From positions 1-36,348 of IMG/VR virus record IMGVR_UViG_3300020050_017826: 36,348 nucleotides of DNA. One strand, written 5' to 3'. The notes under the pieces were generated by a model. It made no database searches. It worked only from the letters and a program-made list of their open reading frames with translations, and had not been told where the DNA came from. The number at the start of each line of letters is the position of its first letter. Position 1 is the stretch's first letter. The stretch is from a virus. This document shows positions 448 to 36,348 of the stretch, one piece after another. Made by a program: the position numbers and the translations under genes.

Positions 448-882
448 ATGATCAAACAACATTACAAAAAAGTGCTTTTAGTCCTGGTGCTGTGTGCTGC
501 TAGCTTTAGCGCGGGAAAGTTCTTTTCACACCCTTCTAGCGTAAAGGAGCAAAGTAAGGTTGATGCGAAGAAGGAAGAAAAAAAGAACATCGCGAGAGTT
601 GTGGTGAGAGAGAAAGTTACTCTTCCATCAGGTGAGGTAAGGGAAAAAGTGGTGGAAACACTAGATGTGAAGAGTGAAGCCAAGAGTGAAGTGAAGGAAG
701 AAAAACTCAAGGTGGTGAAGTATGACGCTCCTCGGAATTTCATCTTTGGTGGAGTGAGTCAAAGAGGATCTTATGGGGTGGGATACTCACGCAGAGTGTT
801 AGGTCCATTAGATTTAGGTGTTTTTATATCACACTCCCCGCGAGAGAATCTTGCGGTGGGCTTCGTGGGGTTGCGGTTCTAA
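448..882 (+). CDS. Envelope protein with N-terminal signal/anchor, Lys/Glu-rich linker and C-terminal beta-rich region ending in Phe (spanin-like candidate)
   Basis: Internal ATG at 448 of ORF 355..882 gives MIKQHYKKVLLVLVLCAASFSAGKFF (signal or TM). The middle is KEEKK/EVKEEK-rich. The C-terminus ...ENLAVGFVGLRF shows the alternating hydrophobic pattern with terminal Phe typical of OM beta-barrel beta-signals. Confidence 0.45.
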   Translation: MIKQHYKKVLLVLVLCAASFSAGKFFSHPSSVKEQSKVDAKKEEKKNIARVVVREKVTLPSGEVREKVVETLDVKSEAKSEVKEEKLKVVKYDAPRNFIFGGVSQRGSYGVGYSRRVLGPLDLGVFISHSPRENLAVGFVGLRF

Positions 883-899
883 GCAACATCGCATATAAT
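871..899 (+). promoter_or_regulatory. sigma70-like promoter TTGCGG-N17-TATAAT ending 7 nt before ATG 907 (leaderless endolysin mRNA candidate)
   Basis: TTGCGG at 871..876, 17-nt spacer, TATAAT at 894..899, then ctaagtc and the ATG. There is no Shine-Dalgarno before 907. Confidence 0.45.
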
Positions 900-906
900 C
901 TAAGTC

Positions 907-1323
907 ATGAAGAAAATTTTCACCCCCGAGAGCTTTTTGAAGGGTATTGCGCTAAACCGCCTTCCCGCAGCGACTCAAGAAAACCTCCTTTACCTTGCTA
1001 GCAAGTGCAATCTCCTGGAAATCGCCTTCGAGCATGACCTCACCATTACGAGTGGGTATCGCTCTCCAGAGGACCAATACCGCATATATCGCGAGAAAGG
1101 TGTGACGGATACAAGCAAAGTGCCGATGGGCTCATCTCATCTTAAAGGCCTGGCGTGTGATTTTGCAGACACGCATGGTTTGCTTGATCTCTTCCTTTCT
1201 CGAAACAACGGGGAGATGCTGGTGAAGTTAGGACTATACCTCGAACACCCAGATAGCACCCCAGGGTGGACTCACATCCAGCTCAACGCACCCAAGAGTG
1301 GTAAGAGGATATTCTATCCGTAG
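907..1323 (+). CDS. Endolysin, peptidase M15 family (zinc D-Ala-D-Ala carboxypeptidase-like / L-Ala-D-Glu peptidase fold)
   Basis: 138 aa. Motifs SGYRSPEDQ, SSHLKGLACDF (SxHxxGxAxD) and C-terminal GWTHIQL match the M15 (Peptidase_M15_3-type) zinc-binding H/D/H pattern. Confidence 0.8.
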   Translation: MKKIFTPESFLKGIALNRLPAATQENLLYLASKCNLLEIAFEHDLTITSGYRSPEDQYRIYREKGVTDTSKVPMGSSHLKGLACDFADTHGLLDLFLSRNNGEMLVKLGLYLEHPDSTPGWTHIQLNAPKSGKRIFYP

Positions 1324-3895: not shown

Positions 3896-3924
3896 GTAGG
3901 ATTTTTCTCAAAAGTCCCACCTTG

Positions 3925-3969
3925 AGGGGGTCTTTCTGGTTAACTCTAGAAAGACCCCCTTTCTTTTTC
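3925..3969 (+). terminator. Rho-independent terminator after the capsid gene
   Basis: Perfect 13-bp stem AGGGGGTCTTTCT (3925..3937) / AGAAAGACCCCCT (3948..3960) with a 10-nt loop, followed by TTCTTTTTC. Confidence 0.85.
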
Positions 3970-3976
3970 ACTTTCA

Positions 3977-4006
3977 TTGCAACCTCTGTGCCAAGTGTGA
4001 TAAAAT
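3977..4006 (+). promoter_or_regulatory. sigma70-like promoter TTGCAA-N18-(TGa)TAAAAT ending 6 nt before ATG 4013 (leaderless candidate)
   Basis: TTGCAA at 3977..3982, extended -10 TGATAAAAT at 3998..4006, then cacgaa and the ATG. There is no Shine-Dalgarno. The gene needs its own promoter because it follows the terminator. Confidence 0.45.
3978..3993 (-). promoter_or_regulatory. sigma54-type match TGGCAC-AGAGG-TTGCA on the minus strand, antisense to the capsid gene
   Basis: The reverse complement is an exact TGGCAC-N5-TTGCA match. It overlaps the plus-strand promoter candidate above, and no minus-strand gene lies downstream of it. Confidence 0.3.
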
Positions 4007-4012
4007 CACGAA

Positions 4013-5158
4013 ATGGCAGTCACACTCACAGTCAATGGTAGCTCTTTCTCGTACCCCTCGCTTGAAACGGATACTTTTTGGGGAGCTGCGGCAACTGGGT
4101 GGGCTCAGGCTGTTACGAATGGGATGCTCCAGAAGGCCGGAGGAAGCTTCACCCTTACCGCGAATGTGGACTTTGGCGCATCGTTTGGTCTGAAGTCGCT
4201 GCACTTTTCCTCCCGCACATCTAACCCTTCAAGTGCCGGTCTGATTCGCCTTGCAAATGTTGATACCTTTGGGTTTCGCAACGCCGCAAACTCTGCGGAT
4301 CTTCTTTTCAGCATCAACCCCGCGAATGATCACCTTCTTTTTAACGGCATAGACCTAAGCGCTTCTTCTTCTAGTGGTAATGTTGTGGGACCAGTTAGTT
4401 CTACGGACAATGCGTTGGTTCGATTTGATGGCATAACGGGTCAGATTATTCAGAATTCCTCAGTAGTTGTATCTGATGCGGGAGAAATAACTGGCGTTAC
4501 AACGATAAATGCAGCTGGAACTACGACTTTTGGTGCAACAGTAGCAACAGGAACAGCGGCTGCAAATGCGCTAACGTCGGCAACCACGGCAGTTTTAGGC
4601 ACAGGCGTTTCAACCACAACCACCCCCGACATGACCATTAACGCCAACACGGGTGACGCGACGATTCGCTTGCAGGTAAACAATGCTGCGGCAAACGCTT
4701 GGGATATCAGAAACGACAATTCAGATGCAGATGCATATTGTTTAGAGTACAATGCTATTCAACGATATAATTTCAAAGCCACAGGTTTGACGGCGATTAA
4801 ATTTGACAGCACTAATATCAGTTCCAGTTCAACCCCTGTGTCTAACACAATATACCCAAACACGCTAATCAAAGCCTGGGCGAATACAACTTCAGCAGGA
4901 GTTATATTGGATGCAAATAATTTAACGTGCTCCAGCGGTTCCACTGGCCAATATACTTATACATTTAAGGTTCCTATGGCAAGCACTAATTATGCTGTAA
5001 TTGTTACTGTAGAGGACACAGCTACGGGCTATATTGCGTCTGTCGCGACCACTACATTTTCAGGAAAAACAGTTAATTCATTTCTTGTAAATGTGGTGAC
5101 TAATTCTAATGCATTTGTGAATGCGCGGCATTCCGTGATGGTTATCGGTCAGCAGTAA
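4013..5158 (+). CDS. Tail fibre-like protein
   Basis: 381 aa. The N-terminus (TVNGSSFSYPS..TFWGAAATGWAQAVTNG) resembles conserved phage fibre N-termini as I recall them. The remainder is Thr/Ser/Ala/Asn-rich beta-type sequence. Confidence 0.5.
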   Translation: MAVTLTVNGSSFSYPSLETDTFWGAAATGWAQAVTNGMLQKAGGSFTLTANVDFGASFGLKSLHFSSRTSNPSSAGLIRLANVDTFGFRNAANSADLLFSINPANDHLLFNGIDLSASSSSGNVVGPVSSTDNALVRFDGITGQIIQNSSVVVSDAGEITGVTTINAAGTTTFGATVATGTAAANALTSATTAVLGTGVSTTTTPDMTINANTGDATIRLQVNNAAANAWDIRNDNSDADAYCLEYNAIQRYNFKATGLTAIKFDSTNISSSSTPVSNTIYPNTLIKAWANTTSAGVILDANNLTCSSGSTGQYTYTFKVPMASTNYAVIVTVEDTATGYIASVATTTFSGKTVNSFLVNVVTNSNAFVNARHSVMVIGQQ

Positions 5159-18622: not shown

Positions 18623-18934
18623 CTATCCCCGTGATTGAAGTACGTTTCGGAGCTTAAGTGACTCCACCTCGGCTTGAAGTTGCTCTAGAGCTTGAGCTGG
18701 AGTCTTCTCCTTGAACGCCTTTCGCTGTTGCTGGCGCTTAAAGCCATACAGACTTAGGACCAAAAACGTATTCGCAATATCCAGGATACCGGTACTAGGT
18801 GCCAAAGCCATCTTCACAATCACCACCCACGCAGCTACGTTTGTAGCGCTGAGTGCGTTGTCTCGATTTAAAAGTGAGAGGAATATGAAAACCTTGAAAA
18901 ATCCTTCTTTGATCTTAAGTGCGAATGCGTCCAT
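18623..18934 (-). CDS. Holin-like membrane protein (three hydrophobic segments plus charged tail)
   Basis: 103 aa. Hydrophobic stretches FFKVFIFLSLL, VAAWVVIVKMALA and ILDIANTFLVLSLYGF, followed by a basic coiled tail. The order holin-like, small terminase, terL resembles T7. Confidence 0.4.
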   Translation of the reverse strand: MDAFALKIKEGFFKVFIFLSLLNRDNALSATNVAAWVVIVKMALAPSTGILDIANTFLVLSLYGFKRQQQRKAFKEKTPAQALEQLQAEVESLKLRNVLQSRG

Positions 18935-19448
18935 TTTTTTGCTCCTGTTTCGTCATTATAGCTTGTTTTCTAAATATGTCCAACGCGGTATACCAGGACG
19001 GCACACTGTACTTCCCAGCGCGCTCTAGCTCGTACGCTTTTGTATCATACTCCTTGAGTGATGTGGAGTATTGTCGCAGTTCCCTGGCATTCAACCTCAG
19101 CGGGGTGTACTTTAAAAGAAGCGCACATAGGAGTTCATACTCCAAAGCTTTGAAATCTTGCAAGCTTTTCTTGAGGGGTGAAGGCAAGTCCCCTAAAAAG
19201 ACCTCAGCCATATCATGCCACAGCGCGAAGAGTCTGAAGCGCTCAAAAACCCCAGCGGGCATCAAGTTCCACACCATCAAAGAGTGGTCTAAGATACTAA
19301 TGCTAGATGTTCCACAATTCCTGTACACCCCATCGGCTAAGCGTAGGAATGATTCTAAGCTTAGGGATGGGTTGAAAGGATCTAGTGTGCGTAACTTTCC
19401 ATCCACAAAGATCTCTATACTAACACTTTTCTTCATAGTACACCCCAT
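18915..19448 (-). CDS. HD-domain phosphohydrolase (YfbR-like 5'-deoxynucleotidase type)
   Basis: 177 aa. HSLMV ... FALWHDMAEVFLGDLPSPLKK (H..HD..D pattern). Confidence 0.7.
   Translation of the reverse strand: MGCTMKKSVSIEIFVDGKLRTLDPFNPSLSLESFLRLADGVYRNCGTSSISILDHSLMVWNLMPAGVFERFRLFALWHDMAEVFLGDLPSPLKKSLQDFKALEYELLCALLLKYTPLRLNARELRQYSTSLKEYDTKAYELERAGKYSVPSWYTALDIFRKQAIMTKQEQKNGRIRT
18955..18983 (-). promoter_or_regulatory. sigma70-like promoter TTGGAC-N17-TATAAT for the holin-like/terminase/portal genes
   Basis: On the minus strand: TTGGAC (18983..18978), a 17-nt spacer and TATAAT (18960..18955). GGAG and ATG 18934 follow. It lies inside the 3' end of the HD gene. Confidence 0.45.
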
Positions 19449-24572: not shown

Positions 24573-24783
24573 TTTTGTCTTCCTCTTCATACATAGCTAA
24601 AGCAAGCCTTTCAGCTTCAAACGGTGATATGCATCTAATACACTCGATGTACTCTTTTCCTGGAAATCCATCGGAGCTGTCGTCCTCTTGAATATGAAAC
24701 TGACCTTTAGTTGTGAATTTTCCACATACGTCGCATTTTACTGGCTTGGTCATTTTTTTCTCTAGGTCTATGGGGGCTTTCAT
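24556..24783 (-). CDS. Small zinc-ribbon protein with a PIDLEK N-terminus
   Basis: ATG 24783 has SD GGAGG. MKAPIDLEKK, CDVCGK ... CIRC. Confidence 0.5.
   Translation of the reverse strand: MKAPIDLEKKMTKPVKCDVCGKFTTKGQFHIQEDDSSDGFPGKEYIECIRCISPFEAERLALAMYEEEDKNETKD
24765..24780. repeat. 16-nt string GGTCTATGGGGGCTTT at a gene start (identical copy at 25037..25052)
   Basis: Read directly. Both copies encode the KAPID N-terminus of adjacent genes. TTCTCTAGGTCTAT at 24758..24771 is also identical to 25858..25871. Confidence 0.85.
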
Positions 24784-25336: not shown

Positions 25337-25659
25337 TTCTTCCACTCCTCATCCAGCGCGGCGAGCCATTCATTGGCCCTACTAACACATCCAGGACATG
25401 GTTTTTCTCCGTCACAGTCAAGAAACTCGGGAACTAACCCCTTAGCTCCCTCCAAAAGCTTCTCTTGGCGGGCGAGTTTAGTGGTTGCTTCCAGAAGTTT
25501 TGCGGCAAGTAATTCTTTTTCCACGTAACTAACTTTATATCTGTGAATATCTTCCGCTTGCGCTTCTAGGGTGGAGATGATTTCCATGATTTCGCCTCGT
25601 TTTAAAGTTGCGTATGTTCCGTCTTCCAATACTTTCAACCGTTCGATGAGGGATTTCAT
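25333..25659 (-). CDS. Small coiled-coil protein, distant member of the same family (LIERLKVL ... NEWLAAL)
   Basis: ATG 25659 overlaps the upstream TGA. Confidence 0.5.
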   Translation of the reverse strand: MKSLIERLKVLEDGTYATLKRGEIMEIISTLEAQAEDIHRYKVSYVEKELLAAKLLEATTKLARQEKLLEGAKGLVPEFLDCDGEKPCPGCVSRANEWLAALDEEWKK

Positions 25660-26452: not shown

Positions 26453-27106
26453 TTACCTCAAGCTAAGCTCTATGCCAAGGAAGTCCGCGCCTAAGTTCTC
26501 ACTCGACCCACTTCCATTGCTAAAGTGTGCACCAAATATGCCAAGTTTTGCGCCCAAGCCCTTGCTCACCACTCCAAAAGCCACTCGATTCTCAACCTGA
26601 AGGTGAGTCGCAATTCCAGTGGTGCGTTTGTCAAAAACCGCAACTCCTACGGATGCACTAGCATAGAGGATATCGTTTTCCGCCAAAGCCTCCGTACCCA
26701 CACTCACAAAAGTGTTCCAGTTTTGCGTGAGAAAGTTCACATGATTTATACCACCCACACTCCCATACAGATGAAACACACTCACAACCCTTTCACGTGC
26801 CGTGATGCTGAGGTACTTTTGGTTTTGAACGTACTTTTGACCTAGCCCGGTTCTTAGCGTAAGTTCAGTTGCACTCACATTCAGTGTCAAACCCACGATG
26901 AAAGTTACGAGTATGGCTTTGAGATGTTTTAAGGTCACTTTTAATTGAAACACGCTAGGAGTAGTGTAGGATGACATGTATTTTTTATGAAACTTGATGT
27001 ACGCGAATGCTTTCTTTTTGTTTGTGTACCTCGCACCATCCAAGAGAAGGTCCGTCAACTTGTCATCATACTTTCCGATAATGTATATGTTTTGCTTACG
27101 TTTCAT
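26453..27106 (-). CDS. PagL-like outer-membrane beta-barrel (lipid A 3-O-deacylase / acyloxyacyl hydrolase family candidate)
   Basis: 217 aa. Internal signal-like LKHLKAILVTFIVGLTLNVSA (alternative start ATG 26977), then amphipathic beta strands. The C-terminal ...LGIFGAHFSNGSGSSENLGADFLGIELSL resembles the HxSN catalytic region of PagL (IHYSNAG...NDGIES in P. aeruginosa, from memory). Confidence 0.55.
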   Translation of the reverse strand: MKRKQNIYIIGKYDDKLTDLLLDGARYTNKKKAFAYIKFHKKYMSSYTTPSVFQLKVTLKHLKAILVTFIVGLTLNVSATELTLRTGLGQKYVQNQKYLSITARERVVSVFHLYGSVGGINHVNFLTQNWNTFVSVGTEALAENDILYASASVGVAVFDKRTTGIATHLQVENRVAFGVVSKGLGAKLGIFGAHFSNGSGSSENLGADFLGIELSLR

Positions 27107-27513: not shown

Positions 27514-27739
27514 GAGTATCCTTTTTTAGGAGTGATTTGAAGTGCGCAATACTCTCAAGTGCACTTGCTTGGAAATCTTCATCTAGTGTTTGCATCATGA
27601 GTACACGAGTGGCGATTATAGCGGCTTCCGGCACAATATGAGATGCCATTACAGCCATTTCTAGAGATGTGAGATTCTCTCGAAGTGTACGAAGGCTTTT
27701 CTTAATGTGTGATCTAGGGTGTGATCTAGGGTCTGTCAT
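27506..27739 (-). CDS. Hypothetical early protein
   Basis: 77 aa with ATG preceded by AAGGA. It is the first gene after the tandem promoters. Confidence 0.5.
   Translation of the reverse strand: MTDPRSHPRSHIKKSLRTLRENLTSLEMAVMASHIVPEAAIIATRVLMMQTLDEDFQASALESIAHFKSLLKKDTHD
27707..27730. repeat. Exact tandem 12-mer GTGTGATCTAGG x2
   Basis: Read directly. It spans codons 4-11 of gene 27506..27739 and encodes PRSHPRSH. Confidence 0.9.
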
Positions 27740-27810
27740 GTTGTGCTGTCCTTTGCTGTTAAAGTTGTTGTATATCTTATTTTACCTTACGATGTAAACC
27801 TCGGGAAGAA

Positions 27811-27826
27811 CGCTATTTTCGTGCCA
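27811..27826 (-). promoter_or_regulatory. sigma54-type match TGGCAC-GAAAA-TAGCG
   Basis: The reverse complement has a perfect -24 box and GC at -12 with correct spacing. It is intergenic, 72 nt before ATG 27739. No sigma70 -10 box is found at the right distance. Confidence 0.35.
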
Positions 27827-27833
27827 AGTTGAG

Positions 27834-27863
27834 ATTATAGCGGTGGTGCAATCTGTGTGCCAA
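27834..27863 (-). promoter_or_regulatory. Promoter readable two ways: sigma70 TTGGCA-N18-TATAAT, and an exact sigma54 TGGCAC-ACAGA-TTGCA (27847..27862)
   Basis: Both readings come directly from the minus strand. The element is 15/17 identical to the promoter at 28308..28324, which has TTGAA instead of TTGCA. Confidence 0.5.
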
Positions 27864-27879
27864 GCTGTGATTATCCTTG

Positions 27880-28301: not shown

Positions 28302-28324
28302 CTGTGATTCAAGCTGTGTGCCAA
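28296..28324 (-). promoter_or_regulatory. sigma70-like early promoter TTGGCA-N17-TATGAT
   Basis: On the minus strand: -35 box at 28324..28319 and -10 box at 28301..28296, about 50 nt upstream of ATG 28242. Confidence 0.55.
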
Positions 28325-28453
28325 GTTTGGTGGGAAAGTATGATTGAAGAGTGGGATTGTGATTATACTCTTTATACTGGTGAAAATGAGTGATTTGAAG
28401 CATGGGTATGAGTTTAAACATGATTTAAATCGAGATGAGCATTCTAAGTTTTT

Positions 28454-29518: not shown

Positions 29519-30328
29519 TTAGAACCCTCTGATACCCCTGAAATGCGGCCCTGGAGCCATGGTGGCTGGTTGAGTCGCAACAGGTGGGCTGATGATGGTC
29601 ACAAGGCGCTCTAGTGATCTCAAGGCACGCTCACGGCGATTCTGGGCATCCTCTTTGTCACCCCAGGAGTCAAGCAAAGTGGCCACAGCTACATCCACAA
29701 GAACGGCTTGGAGATCAAAGGGGAGTGGAAGAGCGCTGGCAGTTTCCGGCTCAGCAACATACCCACCTTCGACGGCACTTGTGGAGTCAATCGTAATGGT
29801 GGTTGTGCCCGAGCCACTCAAAACGCTCACACTAGCGTCAATCAACTTTCCATTCGAGTCTAGGAGGTCAACTTCGCTCCCAGTGAACGCTGCACTCAGG
29901 CCTAGGACATTTGAAGCCACACTTTCCACGACATACTCGTCTTCAACCAAAGAAGGTAATCGCAGGTAATACTTCACCGCGAAGTCATTCGAGAGGGAGT
30001 TGAAGCTCACCACGCTGTTGCCTTGGGTGTAGCCAAGCATTGGGGTGTACTGGGTTTGGCTCGAGGTATTACCTTGAGATCGCACATACACGCCCTCTAG
30101 GCGCTCACCAATGGCACGTTCCGGGATAGGGAACTCCAGCAACCCATTCTCCACTTCCTTTGCCACCACCAGGCCGCTCCAAGCATTATCCAAGAGTGCG
30201 GGGACAATTTCGGTTTGCACACAGTGGTTTACGGCGTCGAGGATGATATCATTCGTGCCCTCTGGGAGACTCTGAGGGAGCATAGCACTGGTTTTTACTT
30301 TTGCGAGCAAGCTTGAGGTTTTAATCAT
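29519..30328 (-). CDS. Virion structural protein candidate (adaptor / tail tubular A-sized)
   Basis: ORF 29519..30424 with three possible ATGs (30424, 30382, 30328). 30328 avoids head-to-head overlap with the divergent gene and sits 7 nt after a TATAAT. No motif recognised. Confidence 0.35.
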   Translation of the reverse strand: MIKTSSLLAKVKTSAMLPQSLPEGTNDIILDAVNHCVQTEIVPALLDNAWSGLVVAKEVENGLLEFPIPERAIGERLEGVYVRSQGNTSSQTQYTPMLGYTQGNSVVSFNSLSNDFAVKYYLRLPSLVEDEYVVESVASNVLGLSAAFTGSEVDLLDSNGKLIDASVSVLSGSGTTTITIDSTSAVEGGYVAEPETASALPLPFDLQAVLVDVAVATLLDSWGDKEDAQNRRERALRSLERLVTIISPPVATQPATMAPGPHFRGIRGF

Positions 30329-30334
30329 GATTGA

Positions 30335-30349
30335 GATTATACTATAATC
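30335..30349. promoter_or_regulatory. Perfect palindrome GATTATA-C-TATAATC, giving a TATAAT on both strands of a divergent intergenic region
   Basis: Read directly. The minus-strand TATAAT (30341..30336) ends 7 nt before ATG 30328. Confidence 0.5.
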
Positions 30350-30399
30350 AATAGGGGTAGCTCCAGTGCTTTTTGCTCCCATTTTACCCCAACCCACGT

Positions 30400-30405
30400 T
30401 ATACT
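30400..30405 (+). promoter_or_regulatory. -10-like TATACT 6 nt before ATG 30412
   Basis: Read directly. There is no Shine-Dalgarno and no convincing -35 box. Confidence 0.3.
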
Positions 30406-30411
30406 CTTGGG

Positions 30412-32745
30412 ATGCAATACGCATTCCCCAAACTCCGAGGTTTGATTACAAACGCGAATACGCTAGAGACGGATCAGATTGGACTTAGCGATGCGAAGAA
30501 TTTAGTCTTTTCGCGACCGAATCTTGTGAGCGGGTGTCGGGGGTTTAAGCAACTCGCGGGGACCACTTCAGCGGGAAAGCAGCTCTTCACAAATGGGGAA
30601 GATCGATGGTTGCTAAACTCCACCGGCCTAGCGCTTTACGCCGGAAGTGATTGGGGCAGCGTGGCAGCGTGTGTACCTCCTAGTGGAAGCCTCATGACAG
30701 CTTCCTTTAGTGGAGATCGTAACTTTTTCACCACTTCCACAGGAGTAAAGGCTTGGGAAAATGGTGCTCTTTTGCCTGCTGGTGTGCCTCCAGCTCTGGA
30801 TATCGCGACTAGTGTGACTGGGACTTCGGGATTTTTGGCAAATGGGAACAAAGTAAGCTACACATATGTTTTTAGTCGGCAGACATCGGTACGACTTTTA
30901 GTTGGCTCTCCAGCATTTGGCATTGAGCTCACAAACTCGAGTGGAGGGACGCGAAATGTTGCTCTCACCATGACCATTCCCAGCAGCATCACGACTTCAC
31001 ACCAAGTTCAAGTATACAGGACAGTTCAAAGTACAGCTTCAAACGCGGAGTACTATTACGTCAAATCACTCAGCATTGCGGCTGGGGACATCACAGCAGG
31101 ATTTCTCTCCTTCACCGACACCATCTTGGACACCCAGCTAGGGGCTGCGCTTTACACAAACGCAAGTCAAGAAGGGATTTTGGCTCAAAATGAACCTCCT
31201 CCAGCGTGCAAGGTGCTAGGGTCATTCCAGGGCACAACTTTTTTTGCGAATGTGAGCCGCCCTGCGGAGAAGTTGCTCAAACTTCTTCTTACCCCTAGCG
31301 TAAATGACACCATAGCCATAGCTGGGGTGACATTCACTGCAAAGGCGGCTGAAACCATAGCCAGTGGGTTTTTTGATCAAAGTGGCACCTTGGAAAACAC
31401 CGCACGCTCACTTTGCAGGGTGATAAATCAATATGCATCTAGCACTAGTGTCTATGCGAGATACCTTGGTGCTGGGTTGATTTTCCTTCAAGGTCGCGCT
31501 CTCACAGTCACAAGTCTCACCATCACCCCAAGTGTAGCTGCGACGTGGGACATACAGGATGGCCGGCCAATCGAAGAAAAGAATAAAGTATATTGCTCCA
31601 AGCCTGGGGAGCCGGATGCGGTGCCGTCTCAGAATTTTGCTACCATAGCGGGAGTGGCGGCTGAGGTCACAGCGATGGTCTTCACTCCGGTTCATATTTT
31701 CATTTGCACGAGCGAGGGGATTTTTGGCTCGAGCGAACCATACTTACCAACAGCTCAGATTGTGGTCATAGATGCTACTCTTGTGGTGCCGAATCCGTTC
31801 TTGGTGAGTCCTGCGGAGGCTGGGGCGTACGTGCTTAGCCGAGAGGGGTTATTTAAAGTGACTCCTCAAGGTTCAGAGCGATTAGATTACTTTTTAAAGA
31901 ACTACGAAGACATTCTTGATTTCGATGCGCTTAGCGTGAGGGGTTTCATGCTCAACTACACTGTGGATAGAAATCTCATTGTAGCTTTGCCTCAAACGGA
32001 TGATGCGGAGAGTGATCTTACTTGGTGGGTTTTTTCCACCTTAGTTCAAGAGTGGACGTACATGGACCGCATAGACCATAGCGCAATTTTCTACCAAGGT
32101 AAGCTGAATTCCCTTCAAAGCGATCAGACATTTGTGGAGCGAAAAGAACGTAACCGGAGTGATTTTGCTAATCGTGAGTATGCGGTGGTGATTTCGAGTG
32201 TGGCTGATGATGTGGTAGAGCTGGTAGATGCGAGTGAAGCTATAGAAGGTTACTCTCTTGTGCAAGGTTCGTATGAAGGTCAGATTTTAAGCATAGATGG
32301 GAACTTCCTCACCTTAGATGTTAGCTTTCCGTGGGACTTGAGTACGGCCACTTTGCTTGAGCCCCTGGAGTATCGGCTAGAAACGACTGAAATTACGGTG
32401 GGTGATGCGACTTTGCTCAAAAAGTTTACCGAACAAACAGTTTTGATGCAGGATGCAGCATTTAGCAACATACGGATGGACTGGAAGAGTGATCGCTCGC
32501 AACTTTTTCAGGAAGTAAATGCGGTTGGGGGAACGGCGAGTGGATGGGGGCTGCCAGCATGGGGGATTTTCCCGTGGGGTGGGTTTCCTGGGGGACCTCG
32601 CCCAATTAGAGTCTTAATCCCGCTGAACATGCAGCGTGGGATGTGGTTGCAGTGTGGAGTGCGGCTCAAGGTAGCAAAGCAGTATTTTAGTTTTGCCGGG
32701 CTACACTTGAATGTGTACCAAACCACTACGAAGATCAAAACATAA
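30412..32745 (+). CDS. Large tail protein (nozzle / tail tubular B-sized)
   Basis: The ORF opens at a TTG (30373); the first ATG is 30412. 777 aa, Ser/Thr/Gly-rich beta-type sequence. It is the first gene of the rightward structural block. Called on size and position only. Confidence 0.4.
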   Translation: MQYAFPKLRGLITNANTLETDQIGLSDAKNLVFSRPNLVSGCRGFKQLAGTTSAGKQLFTNGEDRWLLNSTGLALYAGSDWGSVAACVPPSGSLMTASFSGDRNFFTTSTGVKAWENGALLPAGVPPALDIATSVTGTSGFLANGNKVSYTYVFSRQTSVRLLVGSPAFGIELTNSSGGTRNVALTMTIPSSITTSHQVQVYRTVQSTASNAEYYYVKSLSIAAGDITAGFLSFTDTILDTQLGAALYTNASQEGILAQNEPPPACKVLGSFQGTTFFANVSRPAEKLLKLLLTPSVNDTIAIAGVTFTAKAAETIASGFFDQSGTLENTARSLCRVINQYASSTSVYARYLGAGLIFLQGRALTVTSLTITPSVAATWDIQDGRPIEEKNKVYCSKPGEPDAVPSQNFATIAGVAAEVTAMVFTPVHIFICTSEGIFGSSEPYLPTAQIVVIDATLVVPNPFLVSPAEAGAYVLSREGLFKVTPQGSERLDYFLKNYEDILDFDALSVRGFMLNYTVDRNLIVALPQTDDAESDLTWWVFSTLVQEWTYMDRIDHSAIFYQGKLNSLQSDQTFVERKERNRSDFANREYAVVISSVADDVVELVDASEAIEGYSLVQGSYEGQILSIDGNFLTLDVSFPWDLSTATLLEPLEYRLETTEITVGDATLLKKFTEQTVLMQDAAFSNIRMDWKSDRSQLFQEVNAVGGTASGWGLPAWGIFPWGGFPGGPRPIRVLIPLNMQRGMWLQCGVRLKVAKQYFSFAGLHLNVYQTTTKIKT

Positions 32746-32747
32746 CG

Positions 32748-32756
32748 TGGTATGAT
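32748..32756 (+). promoter_or_regulatory. Extended -10 TGgTATGAT ending 6 nt before ATG 32763
   Basis: Read directly. There is no Shine-Dalgarno before 32763. Confidence 0.35.
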
Positions 32757-32762
32757 GACGAA

Positions 32763-33101
32763 ATGAAGCATATTTCTAAGCCTAGTACGAGTCAAACCGC
32801 GAATTGGATAGATTTGATCCTGGACGGTCTAAATGGAAACTTGAGTCTCCAAGACAACACGGTTCATCAATTTCTCGACATCACATTCAATACCTCAGCC
32901 ACATACTCGACCGGGGATTGGACGGTTTTGAAATTAAAGGTTGATCCTGTGCGTAAAGTGCGTGGGGTATTGGTGTTGCAGTGTTTCCCGGTGGCTCAGA
33001 TTGCTCTGGATTGGACTCAGGTGGGCGGGGAAGTGGTCTTAGCGCGACCCTTGGGGTTGAGCAACTCCACATCATACAAACTGAGTCTTTTCATCATTTA
33101 A
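32763..33101 (+). CDS. Hypothetical virion protein
   Basis: 112 aa, within the structural block. Confidence 0.45.
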   Translation: MKHISKPSTSQTANWIDLILDGLNGNLSLQDNTVHQFLDITFNTSATYSTGDWTVLKLKVDPVRKVRGVLVLQCFPVAQIALDWTQVGGEVVLARPLGLSNSTSYKLSLFII

Positions 33102-33129: not shown

Positions 33130-33159
33130 TTGCATACCCATCATGGGATGTGCTAGAAT
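33130..33159 (+). promoter_or_regulatory. sigma70-like promoter TTGCAT-N18-(TGc)TAGAAT ending 8 nt before ATG 33168
   Basis: Same architecture as the promoter at 3977..4006. There is no Shine-Dalgarno. Confidence 0.4.
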
Positions 33160-33167
33160 CTTCCAAT

Positions 33168-33830
33168 ATGGGTTGGCTTGGAAAAATCGGTAACGCGTTA
33201 GGGTTTGGTACGCAAGGTGTGGATGCTGCTAAGAGCGCAGCACAACAGTATGACAACATAAACCCTCTTCAGCAAACATGGCAAAACGTCTCAGGATCAC
33301 AGTACGGTCAAAACGCGCTCAGAAGTGCAATCGGTGGGCTCAAGGACATGAGCAAGACCGGGTATAGTGACAGTGACCGTGCGCGCCAAGAGCAACTTTT
33401 GATGGAAACCAATCGCCAAGCATCTAGCGTGCGAGGGGCAGCGTTGAATGATCTTGCTCGTAAGGGGAATTTAAATGGTGGTGGGGCTGTGAGTGCAGCA
33501 CTCCTGGGGTCCCAGCAAGCATCGAATAATGCTGCGGAGCAAGAAAGAGCGATCAGGGCTGAAGGAGAAGCAAGGAAGCTTCAAGTTCTCGGCCAGCTTG
33601 GTGTGCAAGGACAAAATTTAGATCAAAATGTGTTTCAGCAAAACTCATACAACCAAGAAGGAAGTATGAGTACACAGAATCAAAACTACCAGCGACTCCT
33701 AGAGTTACAGCAACTCCGCTCAAACGCACTTTTGGGAGTTGGAAATGCTTACGAGAGTCGAAATAATCGCATGACTGGTTTGATCGGAGCTGGTCTGGGT
33801 GCGGCTGGAAAATTGTTCGGAATAGGATAA
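33168..33830 (+). CDS. Internal virion protein (Gly/Gln/Asn-rich)
   Basis: The ORF opens at a GTG (33150); ATG is at 33168. MGWLGKIGNALGFG... Low-complexity Q/N/G/A-rich sequence with a Gly-rich hydrophobic C-terminus. Confidence 0.5.
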   Translation: MGWLGKIGNALGFGTQGVDAAKSAAQQYDNINPLQQTWQNVSGSQYGQNALRSAIGGLKDMSKTGYSDSDRARQEQLLMETNRQASSVRGAALNDLARKGNLNGGGAVSAALLGSQQASNNAAEQERAIRAEGEARKLQVLGQLGVQGQNLDQNVFQQNSYNQEGSMSTQNQNYQRLLELQQLRSNALLGVGNAYESRNNRMTGLIGAGLGAAGKLFGIG

Positions 33831-33836
33831 AAACGT

Positions 33837-34997
33837 ATGATGACCTGGGAAGAACTTTTAGCTCAAGACGAAGAAGATCAAAAAGTAAATCAAAGCATGC
33901 TCGCGCAAGAACCAAGCTTAGACCAAAAGTTGACGGAAAGCGAACCTAGCGCGAGCAAACCTTCAAGCCCTAGTGTACCGGATTCGTTTTTGAGTGACTT
34001 GATCAAGCTGGAGAGTCAGCGCAAGAAGGATGCGCTGGAGAGTACGAGTGGCACGAGTGGCAAGCAACTTTTTGGCAACATCTTGGCTGGCCTAGGGGAT
34101 ACACTAAACCGTGGACAAAGTAACTTCCTGGACACAAACCTCCAGAGTCAAAGTGCAGCTCGTGATACGAAACGTAAGGTTGCTTTTGCCGATGCTGAGC
34201 GGGACACGAATTTAGGTTTACAAGAGCAAAAAATCCAAGAGCAATTTAAAGCGAAGAACGAAGCGGATCGCGCGAAGAAGGAAAATGAAGACCCCAACAG
34301 TGCGGTTTCAATCTTGAAGAGAAAACGCTACGCTCAAAGTCTTGGGATGCCAGAGCTCGAGAACAAACCCATAAGCGCGAGTGAGCTTGAGAAGGTCATT
34401 GCGCTTCAAAATGGCCAAGATCAAGCTAATCGTCAAGACAGACGCTTGGAGTTGAGTGACAAAAAGGGAAATGATGCGAACATGAGACAAGACAAGCAGC
34501 TTGTGAGTGCAAGCATCAGTCGATTTAACTCCGTCACCAAAGATCTTCGTGACTCTCTTCGCCAAGCGGACAAGTTCGGCGCAAACGTGGATCAAGCACT
34601 CACGAATCCGGTCGCAAAGGCTGGACTTGGATTCACAGCCGCTCGTATTTCAGGATCAAATTCCCAGCTCAGTGATGCTGAACGTCAAATTTTCCAACGC
34701 TTTGGTCTGGCAAACCCAGACACCGCAGACCAAATGATCCGAGACGTGACTAACGGAACTTTAAATCCAAAGTACAAAGACTTCTACAAAGCCTGGGCAG
34801 GGGAGCTTAGCAAAAAAGCAAAAGCACAACTAGCTCAAGAGCGAGACAATGCCATCATTCAAACTCGAGCCATTATTTCCCCTGAAAGTGCGTTGGATCT
34901 TAATAGTGCATTTGCACTTCCAGAGTACACCGCAGCTCAGGATGATGTTAAGATGCAACGGCTTGAAGAACTTCGCAAAAAGAAAGCAGGAAGATAA
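33837..34997 (+). CDS. Internal virion / ejection protein (charged, coiled-coil)
   Basis: 386 aa, acidic N-terminus, K/E/Q-rich. Confidence 0.5.
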   Translation: MMTWEELLAQDEEDQKVNQSMLAQEPSLDQKLTESEPSASKPSSPSVPDSFLSDLIKLESQRKKDALESTSGTSGKQLFGNILAGLGDTLNRGQSNFLDTNLQSQSAARDTKRKVAFADAERDTNLGLQEQKIQEQFKAKNEADRAKKENEDPNSAVSILKRKRYAQSLGMPELENKPISASELEKVIALQNGQDQANRQDRRLELSDKKGNDANMRQDKQLVSASISRFNSVTKDLRDSLRQADKFGANVDQALTNPVAKAGLGFTAARISGSNSQLSDAERQIFQRFGLANPDTADQMIRDVTNGTLNPKYKDFYKAWAGELSKKAKAQLAQERDNAIIQTRAIISPESALDLNSAFALPEYTAAQDDVKMQRLEELRKKKAGR

Positions 34998-36348
34998 TGG
35001 CTCTTACACGAGAAGAAGAAGAAGAACTCGCAGCACTAGAGGCTGAGCTTGGGTCATCTCAGGAGCAAAGCCCAGATCGCAGCATGATGAAATACAGTGC
35101 GGACAACGTTGGGAAAGTTGAGGGGTTTGCACGGGGGTTCGAGAGTGCCACCGGAGTTGGAGATGAAAGTGCCGGCTTAGGAGCTGGGTTGTACGAAGTT
35201 CTGAACCGTGAACCAGATGACACGCGAAGTGTTGGGGAGAGATTTAAGGCCGGTTTTAGCGGTGGACGCCAAGATGAAGTGAAACAGATGGATCATGCGT
35301 ATGATGTCCAGCCTGATGCGTATGCGCTGGGAAAAGGTGCGGGGATTGTAAGCCAAGCCGTGATCACCCCCGCGAGCGTAGGTGCTCAAAGCGCACTGGG
35401 AGCTGCTCAAGGGTTTGCATCTGGGGAGAGTTTACCGGGACGACTTGGCGCGGCGGTGGTTGGCGCTTTGGTGCCGGTGGGGTTGCGTGGTTTGGGTAAA
35501 AGTGCTGGAGAAGCATCGGATGAGCTGAGCCAGCGTGTGGTGCAAAGTACTCTGAACATCCCAAAAGGTGAGCGGGATGCTATTATTCGTGATTATGGTC
35601 CGGAAGGTTTAATCGCTGTGGGCGAGGAGTTACGTAAAAGAGGGATTGGAAACGAGGCTGGGCAGAGTGCACCTGAGATTTTGAGTATGCTCAAAAGTAA
35701 CCTTACGAAAGAGGGCCAAGCCATAGAGAGTGGCGTAGCTAAGATTGCAACTCCTATTGAAACTCCAATCACCCCTGTGGCTGGTGGGTTGGAAGAGCAA
35801 CTTTTTGCGAAAGGCACGAATGAAATTGTGCGTAATGACGCAGCTATTCCGATGTCTCAGGTGAGAGCGGAGTTTCTTGATCCAATCTTGAAGAGTGGTA
35901 AGGATCCTGCTTTTGTGGGTAAAGCAGCTAGGGACGTGGAGAACATCTTAAAGCAATATGGAGATGAAATGTCCTTCCCTCAGCTTCAAGAGTTTCAGCA
36001 AACTTTGGCTGAGAGAGCAAACGCATACGCCAACTCCCCTCTCAAGGGAACTGCAAAGTACCTTAGTGATATTGCGAGTAGTGTGAGATCGACTCTTGGG
36101 GAACTTAGCCCGGAAGTAGCTAGCGCTCAACGTAACTACGCTGTGATGAAGAGTGGTGTGCAAGGAGCACTGAACCCGGTGAGTGATGAGTTTGCACGCA
36201 TGTCACCTGTTTCAAGTATAGCCAGTGCATACAGGAAGACTGTGGGTGGCCCGGAAGTACAAAGCTCCATCAACAGCTTGCTGGAAAAAGCAACATCCTT
36301 CCAAGGTGGGAAGTACGCAGCTCTTTTGGATGCTGCTACGAAGAGTGG
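34997..36348 (+). CDS. Internal virion / ejection protein, 5' part of the junction-spanning gene (476 aa when joined to 122..200)
   Basis: ATG 34997 overlaps the upstream TAA (TAATG). I translated the frame by eye and found no stop before the window end. Contains Gly/Ala-rich hydrophobic segments (GAGIVSQAVITPASVG, LGAAVVGALVPVGL). Confidence 0.6.
   Translation, partial: MALTREEEEELAALEAELGSSQEQSPDRSMMKYSADNVGKVEGFARGFESATGVGDESAGLGAGLYEVLNREPDDTRSVGERFKAGFSGGRQDEVKQMDHAYDVQPDAYALGKGAGIVSQAVITPASVGAQSALGAAQGFASGESLPGRLGAAVVGALVPVGLRGLGKSAGEASDELSQRVVQSTLNIPKGERDAIIRDYGPEGLIAVGEELRKRGIGNEAGQSAPEILSMLKSNLTKEGQAIESGVAKIATPIETPITPVAGGLEEQLFAKGTNEIVRNDAAIPMSQVRAEFLDPILKSGKDPAFVGKAARDVENILKQYGDEMSFPQLQEFQQTLAERANAYANSPLKGTAKYLSDIASSVRSTLGELSPEVASAQRNYAVMKSGVQGALNPVSDEFARMSPVSSIASAYRKTVGGPEVQSSINSLLEKATSFQGGKYAALLDAATKS
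36228..36348. repeat. Terminal direct overlap, right copy (identical to 1..121)
   Basis: See the left copy. Confidence 0.95.

Follow-up and report, generated by a model that had tools for sequence, protein, structure and literature searches.

How a gene is translated when its promoter leaves no room for a leader is the question raised by a stretch of viral DNA in which −10 boxes lie only 6–8 nucleotides (nt) before start codons. The stretch, here called the window, comprises all 36,348 nt of IMG/VR virus record IMGVR_UViG_3300020050_017826, and an earlier note on it had proposed a class of leaderless mRNAs at six genes. RNA polymerase usually starts 7–9 nt downstream of the −10 element, with a purine preferred as the first base, after a pyrimidine; a −10 hexamer that ends 6–8 nt before an ATG would therefore put the transcript start at or near the AUG. 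We find this layout at seven genes, all of them in the module for virion and lysis proteins, and consider it likely that sigma-70-type host promoters abut the AUG there and give leaderless or near-leaderless mRNAs for 7 of the 13 genes of that module. The class is supported by the enrichment of the layout, by the lack of Shine-Dalgarno (SD) sites, by start codons validated on homologs, by a footprint in related genomes, by replication in one of these (L011) and by a negative control in distant ones.

All six promoter strings quoted in the earlier note are present where it had placed them, and a seventh, on the minus strand before ATG 2434, had been missed, so the count of genes with this geometry rises to seven (Table 1). 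A good −35 hexamer of the form TTG(C/A)nn is found at four sites only (907, 2434, 4013 and 33168), at a spacing of N17–18, with the −35/−10 pair of site 7 matching the consensus at 10 of 12 positions, and a TGn extension is found at sites 2, 4 and 5. The base at −1 is a pyrimidine in four of the seven. Within the virion/lysis module 7 of 13 genes carry the layout, versus 0 of 45 elsewhere (p = 6e-6). The proposed confinement to structural and lysis genes therefore holds, but the class does not take in every structural gene: capsid, which is SD-led, and portal and terminase, which lie in the leftward train and are SD-led or coupled, stand outside it. The gene at site 5, labeled an internal virion protein in the earlier note, found no support for that name, and its function is left unassigned.

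The arrangement of the blocks fits the positions of these promoters. At three sites the gene is the first of a divergent block, and the intergenic space is too small for a leader: sites 3 and 6 oppose each other over 83 nt, and site 7 opens a block that diverges from the capsid gene. The fiber gene at site 2 needs its own promoter, because a strong intrinsic terminator lies 16 nt upstream of its −35 hexamer. Site 5 opens a run of genes (33168–33830, 33837–34997, 34997–200, 203–439 and 448–882) in which the downstream cistrons at 33837, 34997, 203 and 448 have SD sites or are coupled.

Table 1. Promoter–AUG junctions of the window, with their counterparts in related genomes (L numbers), and other transcription signals. 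Nn, spacer of n nt; a number before ATG, or at the end of a string, is the gap in nt between the −10 hexamer and the start codon; ΔG, anti-SD hybridization free energy.
Feature	Position	Strand	Elements	Gene	ΔG (kcal/mol)	Related genomes
Site 1	871–909	+	TTGCGG 871–876, N17, TATAAT 894–899, 7 nt, ATG 907	907–1323, endolysin, M15/VanY-type peptidase (endolysin matches)	−0.1	L011 TTGCGT-N17-TATACT-6-ATG; L009 TTGCGT-N17-TATAAT-7-ATG; spacers diverged
Site 2	3977–4015	+	TTGCAA 3977–3982, N18 ending TGa (extended −10), TAAAAT 4001–4006, 6 nt, ATG 4013	4013–5158, tail fiber	−0.2	L011 TTGCAA-N18-TGaTAAAAT-6-ATG; elements unchanged, substitutions in spacer and discriminator
Site 3	30400–30414	+	TATACT 30400–30405, 6 nt, ATG 30412; without −35, without TG	30412–32745, 777-amino-acid (aa) tail protein	+1.2	L011 TATACT-cgtggg-ATG (gap 6); upstream region diverged
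Site 4	32748–32765	+	Extended −10 TGgTATGAT (hexamer 32751–32756), 6 nt, ATG 32763	32763–33101, 112 aa	−2.8	L011 TGcTATACT-7-ATG; hexamer and gap differ, layout same
Site 5	33130–33170	+	TTGCAT 33130–33135, N18 ending TGc, TAGAAT 33154–33159, 8 nt, ATG 33168	33168–33830, 220 aa	+0.2	L005 and L011 TTGCAC-N18-TGcTAAAAT-8-ATG; unrelated spacer, 14-nt indel upstream
Site 6	30326–30341	−	TATAAT 30341–30336, 7 nt, ATG 30328; no good −35	29519–30328, SU10-adaptor-like protein	+0.7	L011 TGcTAAAAT-6-ATG; different sequence after 19-nt indel
Site 7	2432–2470	−	TTGACC 2470–2465, N17, TATGAT 2447–2442, 7 nt, ATG 2434	1571–2434, scaffold-like protein	+0.6	Close: L011/L009 TTGAC(T/G)-N17-CATAAT-7-ATG; further: L013 TTGACA-N17-CATGAT-6; L014 TTGTTT-N18-CATGAT-6; L010 TTGACA-N17-CATGCT-6
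Intrinsic terminator	3924–3961	+	16-bp stem and T-run, between capsid gene and site 2 promoter			Similar element in L011
Conventional promoter	18934–18982	−	TGGACA-N16-TATAAT (18982–18955), 11/12 to consensus, then GACGAAAcAGGAGcaaaaaaATG (18934)		−6.6	
Conventional promoter	27739–27863	−	TTGGCA-N18-TATAAT (27863–27834), 11/12 to consensus, about 90-nt leader to SD-led ATG 27739			

The layout is in clear excess over chance. Both strands of the genome were searched in full for TAnnnT hexamers with at least 5 of 6 matches to TATAAT that end 6–8 nt before an ATG. To allow for the choice of start codon, we took as candidate starts the 102 in-frame ATGs that fall among the first 45 codons of the 58 plausible open reading frames (ORFs). 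The pattern occurs at 15 of 1314 ATGs, divided into 7 of the 102 candidate starts versus 8 of 1212 other ATGs (Fisher p = 5e-5); with only the first ATG of each ORF counted, it occurs at 5 of 56 (p = 2.5e-4). The histogram of gaps between hexamer and ATG peaks at 6–8 nt, with 7 matches versus about 0.4 per gap elsewhere. When the 40 nt upstream of each candidate were shuffled with dinucleotides preserved, the mean number of matches was 0.71 and the maximum 5, so that none of 2000 trials reached the 7 observed. The comparison with other positions and with shuffled controls, which the earlier note had suggested as a check, has thus come out in favor of an enrichment.

Homolog N-termini or the structure of the ORFs support all seven ATGs as the correct starts. 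At ATG 30412, about 40 homologs begin M(S)QxLxLKxKGLxTxxN, in agreement with MQYAFPKLRGLITNAN, and their N-termini exclude both TTG 30373, which opens the longest ORF, and TTG 30442, which the gene caller had chosen. The fiber protein read from ATG 4013 is aligned residue 1 to residue 1 in three homologs, and the homologs of the scaffold-like protein begin MSE(D/T), which agrees with the MSENSNG that the long ORF has from its codon 21 onward (ATG 2434). The caller's alternative for the latter, ATG 2446, is itself part of the −10 hexamer and is missing in the relatives whose hexamer is CATAAT. ATG 907 is the first start codon in its ORF and ATG 32763 the only one. For ATG 30328, L011 has a 19-nt indel that breaks the upstream frame and an in-frame stop three codons before the conserved ATG; because of this stop a longer adaptor N-terminus is ruled out in that genome, and the starts at 30382 and 30424 were rejected on the indel and the stop together. 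Against distant homologs the N-terminal alignment of the adaptor is ambiguous, and the ‘PIDYS’ before Met-33 resembles the ‘xIDYT’ of the homologs. High conservation with L005 and L011 starts exactly at ATG 33168, and the interval from the in-frame GTG 33150 to this ATG has three changes in 15 nt, two of them non-synonymous, which makes the ATG the more probable start of the two. In the stored automatic calls the tail protein has 767 aa, with TTG 30442 as its start, and the scaffold-like protein 291 aa, with ATG 2446.

None of the seven ATGs is preceded by an SD site, as had been claimed for the first six. Anti-SD hybridization energies range from −2.8 to +1.2 kcal/mol, and the 51 remaining genes have a median of −5.6 (Mann-Whitney p = 2e-4). 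The contrast with the remaining genes that had been drawn along with this claim stands as a tendency but not as a rule, given that 12 of the 51 also have a weak SD or none.

The comparison with relatives carries the argument further. Related genomes were collected as a graded series from a capsid search of a large protein database, and consist of a close group with 72–80% DNA identity (L011/L006-8, L009 and L005) and of L013, L014, L010 and L015 with 56–43% capsid identity; L001, a second contig that is 99.93% identical to the window, was left out of the footprinting. A megablast of 12 kb against deposited phages gave no close relative, and the tail and capsid proteins, used in two scans of IMG/VR, gave no close contig. 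In the 72–80% group the layout is present at 7 of 7 junctions, even where the sequence has been replaced. Summed over the sites, identity to these relatives is 83% in the −10 and 86% in the −35 hexamers, 43% in the spacer, 63% in the discriminator and 87% in the first 30 coding nt, and the difference between hexamers and spacer is highly significant (p = 4e-12). Positions A2 and T6 of the −10 hexamer are invariant across the relatives, and TGn is conserved or newly gained. Hexamers that are kept while the spacers drift make a promoter footprint, which indicates purifying selection on the hexamers. By the same comparison selection also acts on how far the hexamer stands from the ATG, because at sites 4 and 6 the elements have been replaced at a preserved distance.

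The enrichment is replicated in L011, in which 6 of 31 versus 2 of 543 ATGs show the pattern (p = 4e-7). Three distant relatives, with about 30% tail-protein identity and one co-directional, coupled, SD-led virion operon, show no enrichment (1/109 versus 21/1795, p = 0.73), and the method therefore does not create the signal. Intermediate relatives have one to three such junctions each. Where the scaffold-like gene is divergent from the capsid gene, the junction is found in every lineage having that arrangement, down to 51% capsid identity, and in L015 (43% capsid identity) another gene that comes first in its block carries TGtTACAAT-6. The capsid gene keeps its GGAG SD in all relatives compared, the fiber gene of the distant L010 is SD-led, and in distant relatives the gene for the 112-aa protein of site 4 overlaps the stop of the tail gene and is coupled to it.

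Gene order has changed along with these junctions. The SU10-adaptor-like gene lies on the same strand as the tail gene, directly upstream of it and coupled to it, in L002, L003, L004, L010 and L014; in the clade of the window it is inverted, from which the divergent junction of sites 3 and 6 follows. In the lysis cassette the promoter has moved: in two intermediate relatives, L010 (7042) and L013 (6573), TGcTAnAAT-6-ATG stands at the gene of about 150 aa that precedes the endolysin gene, and in the window its counterpart (448) is SD-led and the endolysin gene (907) carries the promoter. Probably the layout arose in this clade as an ancestral single coupled virion operon was split by inversions and internal promoters. 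An isolated start of the leaderless type is also seen outside the clade, at 1823 on the minus strand of the distant relative L004, where gTGaTATAGT-6-ATG, without an SD, precedes the first gene of a leftward early block, which encodes a 62-aa Zn-ribbon protein.

From these results we infer that the promoters are active, where exactly the 5′ ends lie and how the mRNAs are translated. Host sigma-70 RNA polymerase would begin each transcript with the A of the AUG or no more than 1–2 nt from it, and the resulting mRNAs, without leader or SD, would be bound directly at their 5′-terminal AUG by 70S ribosomes. Downstream cistrons of the same units would be translated from ordinary SD sites or by coupling; at sites 1 and 4, some translation may come from reinitiation. 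Among the conventional promoters of the genome, the two best have the −10/discriminator cores of the leaderless-type sites: the one at 18982–18955, which is followed by a 20-nt leader with AGGAG, has the core of sites 2 and 4, and the one at 27863–27834 has a TATAAT-CTCA core in common with sites 1, 6 and 7.

Several observations weigh against this explanation. The motifs that describe the common cores, TAnnnT-SACGAAA (3 occurrences versus 0.14 expected) and TATRAT-CTMA (5 versus 0.25 expected), were defined after the sites had been seen and count as supporting evidence only. A generic scan for the −35/−10 consensus does not rise above shuffles (18 versus 20.0 expected, and 26 versus 21.1 expected) and has no discriminating power in this genome. 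The sites before 30412, 32763 and 30328 are without a −35, and that before 30412 is without the TG extension as well, so sites 3 and 6 amount to a hexamer only in the window. The three sites with a gap of 6 have a purine at −1, which makes a leader of 1–3 nt as likely there as a transcript that begins with the AUG. In opening energy, the predicted 5′ ends do not differ from those of other genes (p = 0.61). Lastly, a co-directional stop precedes site 1 by 24 nt and site 4 by 17 nt, the latter being that of the tail gene, and reinitiation from longer transcripts could translate them. If an overlap, or about 20–30 nt to a co-directional stop, is taken as the reach of reinitiation, these two sites are within it, and outside it are site 2, which is separated by the terminator, sites 3, 6 and 7 at the heads of divergent blocks, and site 5 with a gap of 66 nt.

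The alternative that fares best would do without promoters: SD-independent internal initiation on polycistronic mRNA, with the A/T-rich TAnnnT serving as an unstructured enhancer bound by S1, or with termination followed by reinitiation. It draws on the closeness of sites 1 and 4 to upstream stops, on the three sites without a −35, on the translational coupling of the same genes in distant relatives and on 12 other genes that have neither a clear SD nor the −10 layout. However, an enhancer needs neither a −35 hexamer nor its conserved placement at 17–18 nt, both of which are seen at four sites across diverged spacers; the invariance of A2 and T6 and the distance of 6–8 nt kept when the hexamer is replaced also speak against it, and no upstream cistron feeds ribosomes to sites 7, 6 and 3, which head divergent blocks, or to site 2, which follows a terminator. 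We regard this alternative as improbable.

A further alternative is real promoters with short leaders or with starts further downstream, where the spacing would be a by-product of compactness and each gene would be translated mainly from transcripts initiated upstream. The genome is compact, the purine at −1 of the gap-6 sites permits starts 1–3 nt upstream of the AUG, and promoters nested inside operons are common in phages. The spacing of 6–8 nt, however, has been held across lineages despite indels, and the distant relatives without enrichment are equally compact; moreover, a leader of 1–3 nt has no room for an SD and is still functionally leaderless. We judge this explanation quite improbable. 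A chance pattern from the free choice of hexamers and start codons, for which it speaks that three of the starts used by the earlier reader differ from the longest-ORF start, that the hexamers vary and that the generic scan is unenriched, is extremely improbable in view of the tests that allow for start choice, the replication in L011, the unenriched distant control and the element-specific conservation, and the 72–80% identity of the relatives speaks against its variant in which they are chimeric assemblies of one genome.

The remaining features of the window bear on who transcribes these genes and in which host. The window comes from a JGI metagenome contig. Its ends (1–121 and 36228–36348) are an identical overlap of 121 nt, which makes it the circular assembly of a genome of 36,227 bp, and the ORF from 34997 to 200 (476 aa) crosses the end junction. 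Among the encoded proteins are a family-A DNA polymerase, a primase/helicase-like protein (DUF3987), an AAA_24 protein, portal, large terminase, capsid, scaffold-like, SU10-adaptor-like, 777-aa tail and fiber proteins and the M15-type endolysin. No candidate for a phage RNA polymerase was seen among the large ORFs of the window, and the whole genome is therefore presumably transcribed by the host enzyme. The product of an unusual auxiliary gene at 26453–27106 (minus strand) resembles the lipid A 3-O-deacylase PagL (Pfam E = 3e-9), which points to a host with an outer membrane that is apparently Gram-negative.

A weak hint places this host in the Bdellovibrionota. It comes from the sole capsid match among deposited phages, a Silvanigrella phage, and from L012, a 91-kb contig (JBGSNU010000030.1) of the metagenome-assembled genome (MAG) Bdellovibrionales bacterium JTS-AC263, which encodes a capsid relative (33% identity) together with terminase, portal, adaptor and tail proteins and may be a prophage or a binned phage. 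The contig of one relative is binned in a ‘Spirochaetes bacterium’ MAG. A search of the literature for leaderless genes in Bdellovibrio turned up nothing specific.

Further observations concern the early-looking control regions. The motif TGCAA-N5-6-TGTGCCAAG has three copies on the plus strand (3974–3995, 27843–27864 and 28304–28325); two of them, read on the minus strand, provide the −35 TTGGCA of early-looking leftward promoters, and the third lies inside the spacer of the fiber promoter. It may be the operator of a regulator that ties early expression to that of the fiber gene. The divergent control region that separates the rightward small genes from the leftward train contains a 33-nt imperfect inverted repeat (28267–28299/28391–28423), whose sequence, rich in CAT/ATG, gives His codons on either strand, and the small ORFs between 28257 and 29451 are of doubtful coding status. 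ATG 28288 on the minus strand, which stands after TTGGCA-N17-TATGAT-7, was rejected as a further member of the class; it opens an ORF of only 22 codons and is most likely a chance ATG at the beginning of a leadered early transcript. The small leftward genes that start at 24783, 25058 and 25883 (minus strand), and possibly that at 25659, have a near-identical 5′ end that is translated as MK(A/K)PIDLEK (repeat family D2) and look like a small paralogous family of early proteins.

The leaderless mechanism as such is already known, from Deinococcus-Thermus, Actinobacteria and phage phiYS40, and is uncommon. A TANNNT about 10–12 bp upstream of the start is the accepted mark of bacterial leaderless (TA-led) genes (Zheng et al. 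2011, PMC3160421), which are common in Deinococcus-Thermus and Actinobacteria and reach about 16% in some delta-proteobacteria (PMC3160421). Experiments in Deinococcus radiodurans (Zhong et al. 2025, PMC12340547) found a spacing requirement, higher expression with a −35 and mis-annotated starts. The genes described here are like TA-led bacterial genes in the TANNNT a few bp before the ORF, the absence of an SD, the specific spacing and the starts misplaced by gene callers (in the tail and scaffold-like genes), but they belong to a phage with 46% GC and an apparently Gram-negative host, make up only 7 of about 58 genes, all in one module, and are predicted from the sequence. Sites 2, 4 and 5 also resemble extended −10 (TGn) sigma-70 promoters, and site 4, as is typical of these, lacks a −35; that likeness concerns the type of promoter only and is silent on the absence of a leader.

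Two phage systems come closer. In the Thermus phage phiYS40, as summarized in PMC3594737, most middle and late transcripts are leaderless and the balance of the host initiation factors IF2 and IF3 changes on infection. The phage shares with the window a temporal or functional class of genes, virion genes included, that is expressed on leaderless mRNAs made by host RNA polymerase, which for the window is a prediction. It differs in being a large myovirus of a thermophile that itself often uses leaderless mRNAs, whereas here the class covers about half of the virion/lysis module and the rest of the genome has strong SDs. Set beside the phiYS40 description of most middle and late transcripts as leaderless, the figure here is 7 of 13 genes of the module, without capsid, portal and terminase. 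The classic leaderless phage mRNA is that of lambda cI from PRM, and in the leaderless pathway 70S ribosomes bind the 5′-terminal AUG (PMC9031893). The cI case is alike in having a sigma-70 promoter set so that the transcript begins at the AUG and is translated by 70S ribosomes, as predicted here, and unlike in being a single, low-expressed regulatory gene of a temperate phage compared with seven virion and lysis genes.

A bolder interpretation is that the genome holds two translation regimes by design, in which early, replication and packaging genes are SD-led, about half of the virion/lysis genes are leaderless, and a late change in host initiation is exploited or induced by the phage. For example, the ratio of IF3 to IF2 might fall or the pool of free 70S ribosomes grow, as has been proposed for phiYS40. 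We think this interpretation rather unlikely. If true, the synthesis of late proteins would be timed or raised in a Gram-negative host, perhaps one of the Bdellovibrionota, in which such control is not known to have been described, and the gain and turnover of AUG-abutting promoters would reflect selection for the regime, beyond the insertion of promoters after rearrangement.

Judged by the genomes compared, what is distinctive here is the clustering in virion and lysis genes, in a genome otherwise of strong SDs, and the clear signs that promoters abutting the AUG were gained and replaced during the break-up of a coupled operon. Standard gene callers, with their bias toward SD sites, mis-start genes of the leaderless type, as at TTG 30442 and ATG 2446, and prediction that is aware of leaderless genes would improve the annotation of metagenomic phages. 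The seven defined promoter–AUG junctions are open to study in vitro without culturing the host. They would constitute a leaderless gene class, recognized in the sequence, in a phage that belongs to neither the Thermus nor the actinobacterial systems, and the comparison of relatives shows selection on the distance between promoter and AUG. The evolutionary route would lead from one coupled, SD-led virion operon, as in the distant relatives, to several short units headed by promoters that abut the AUG.

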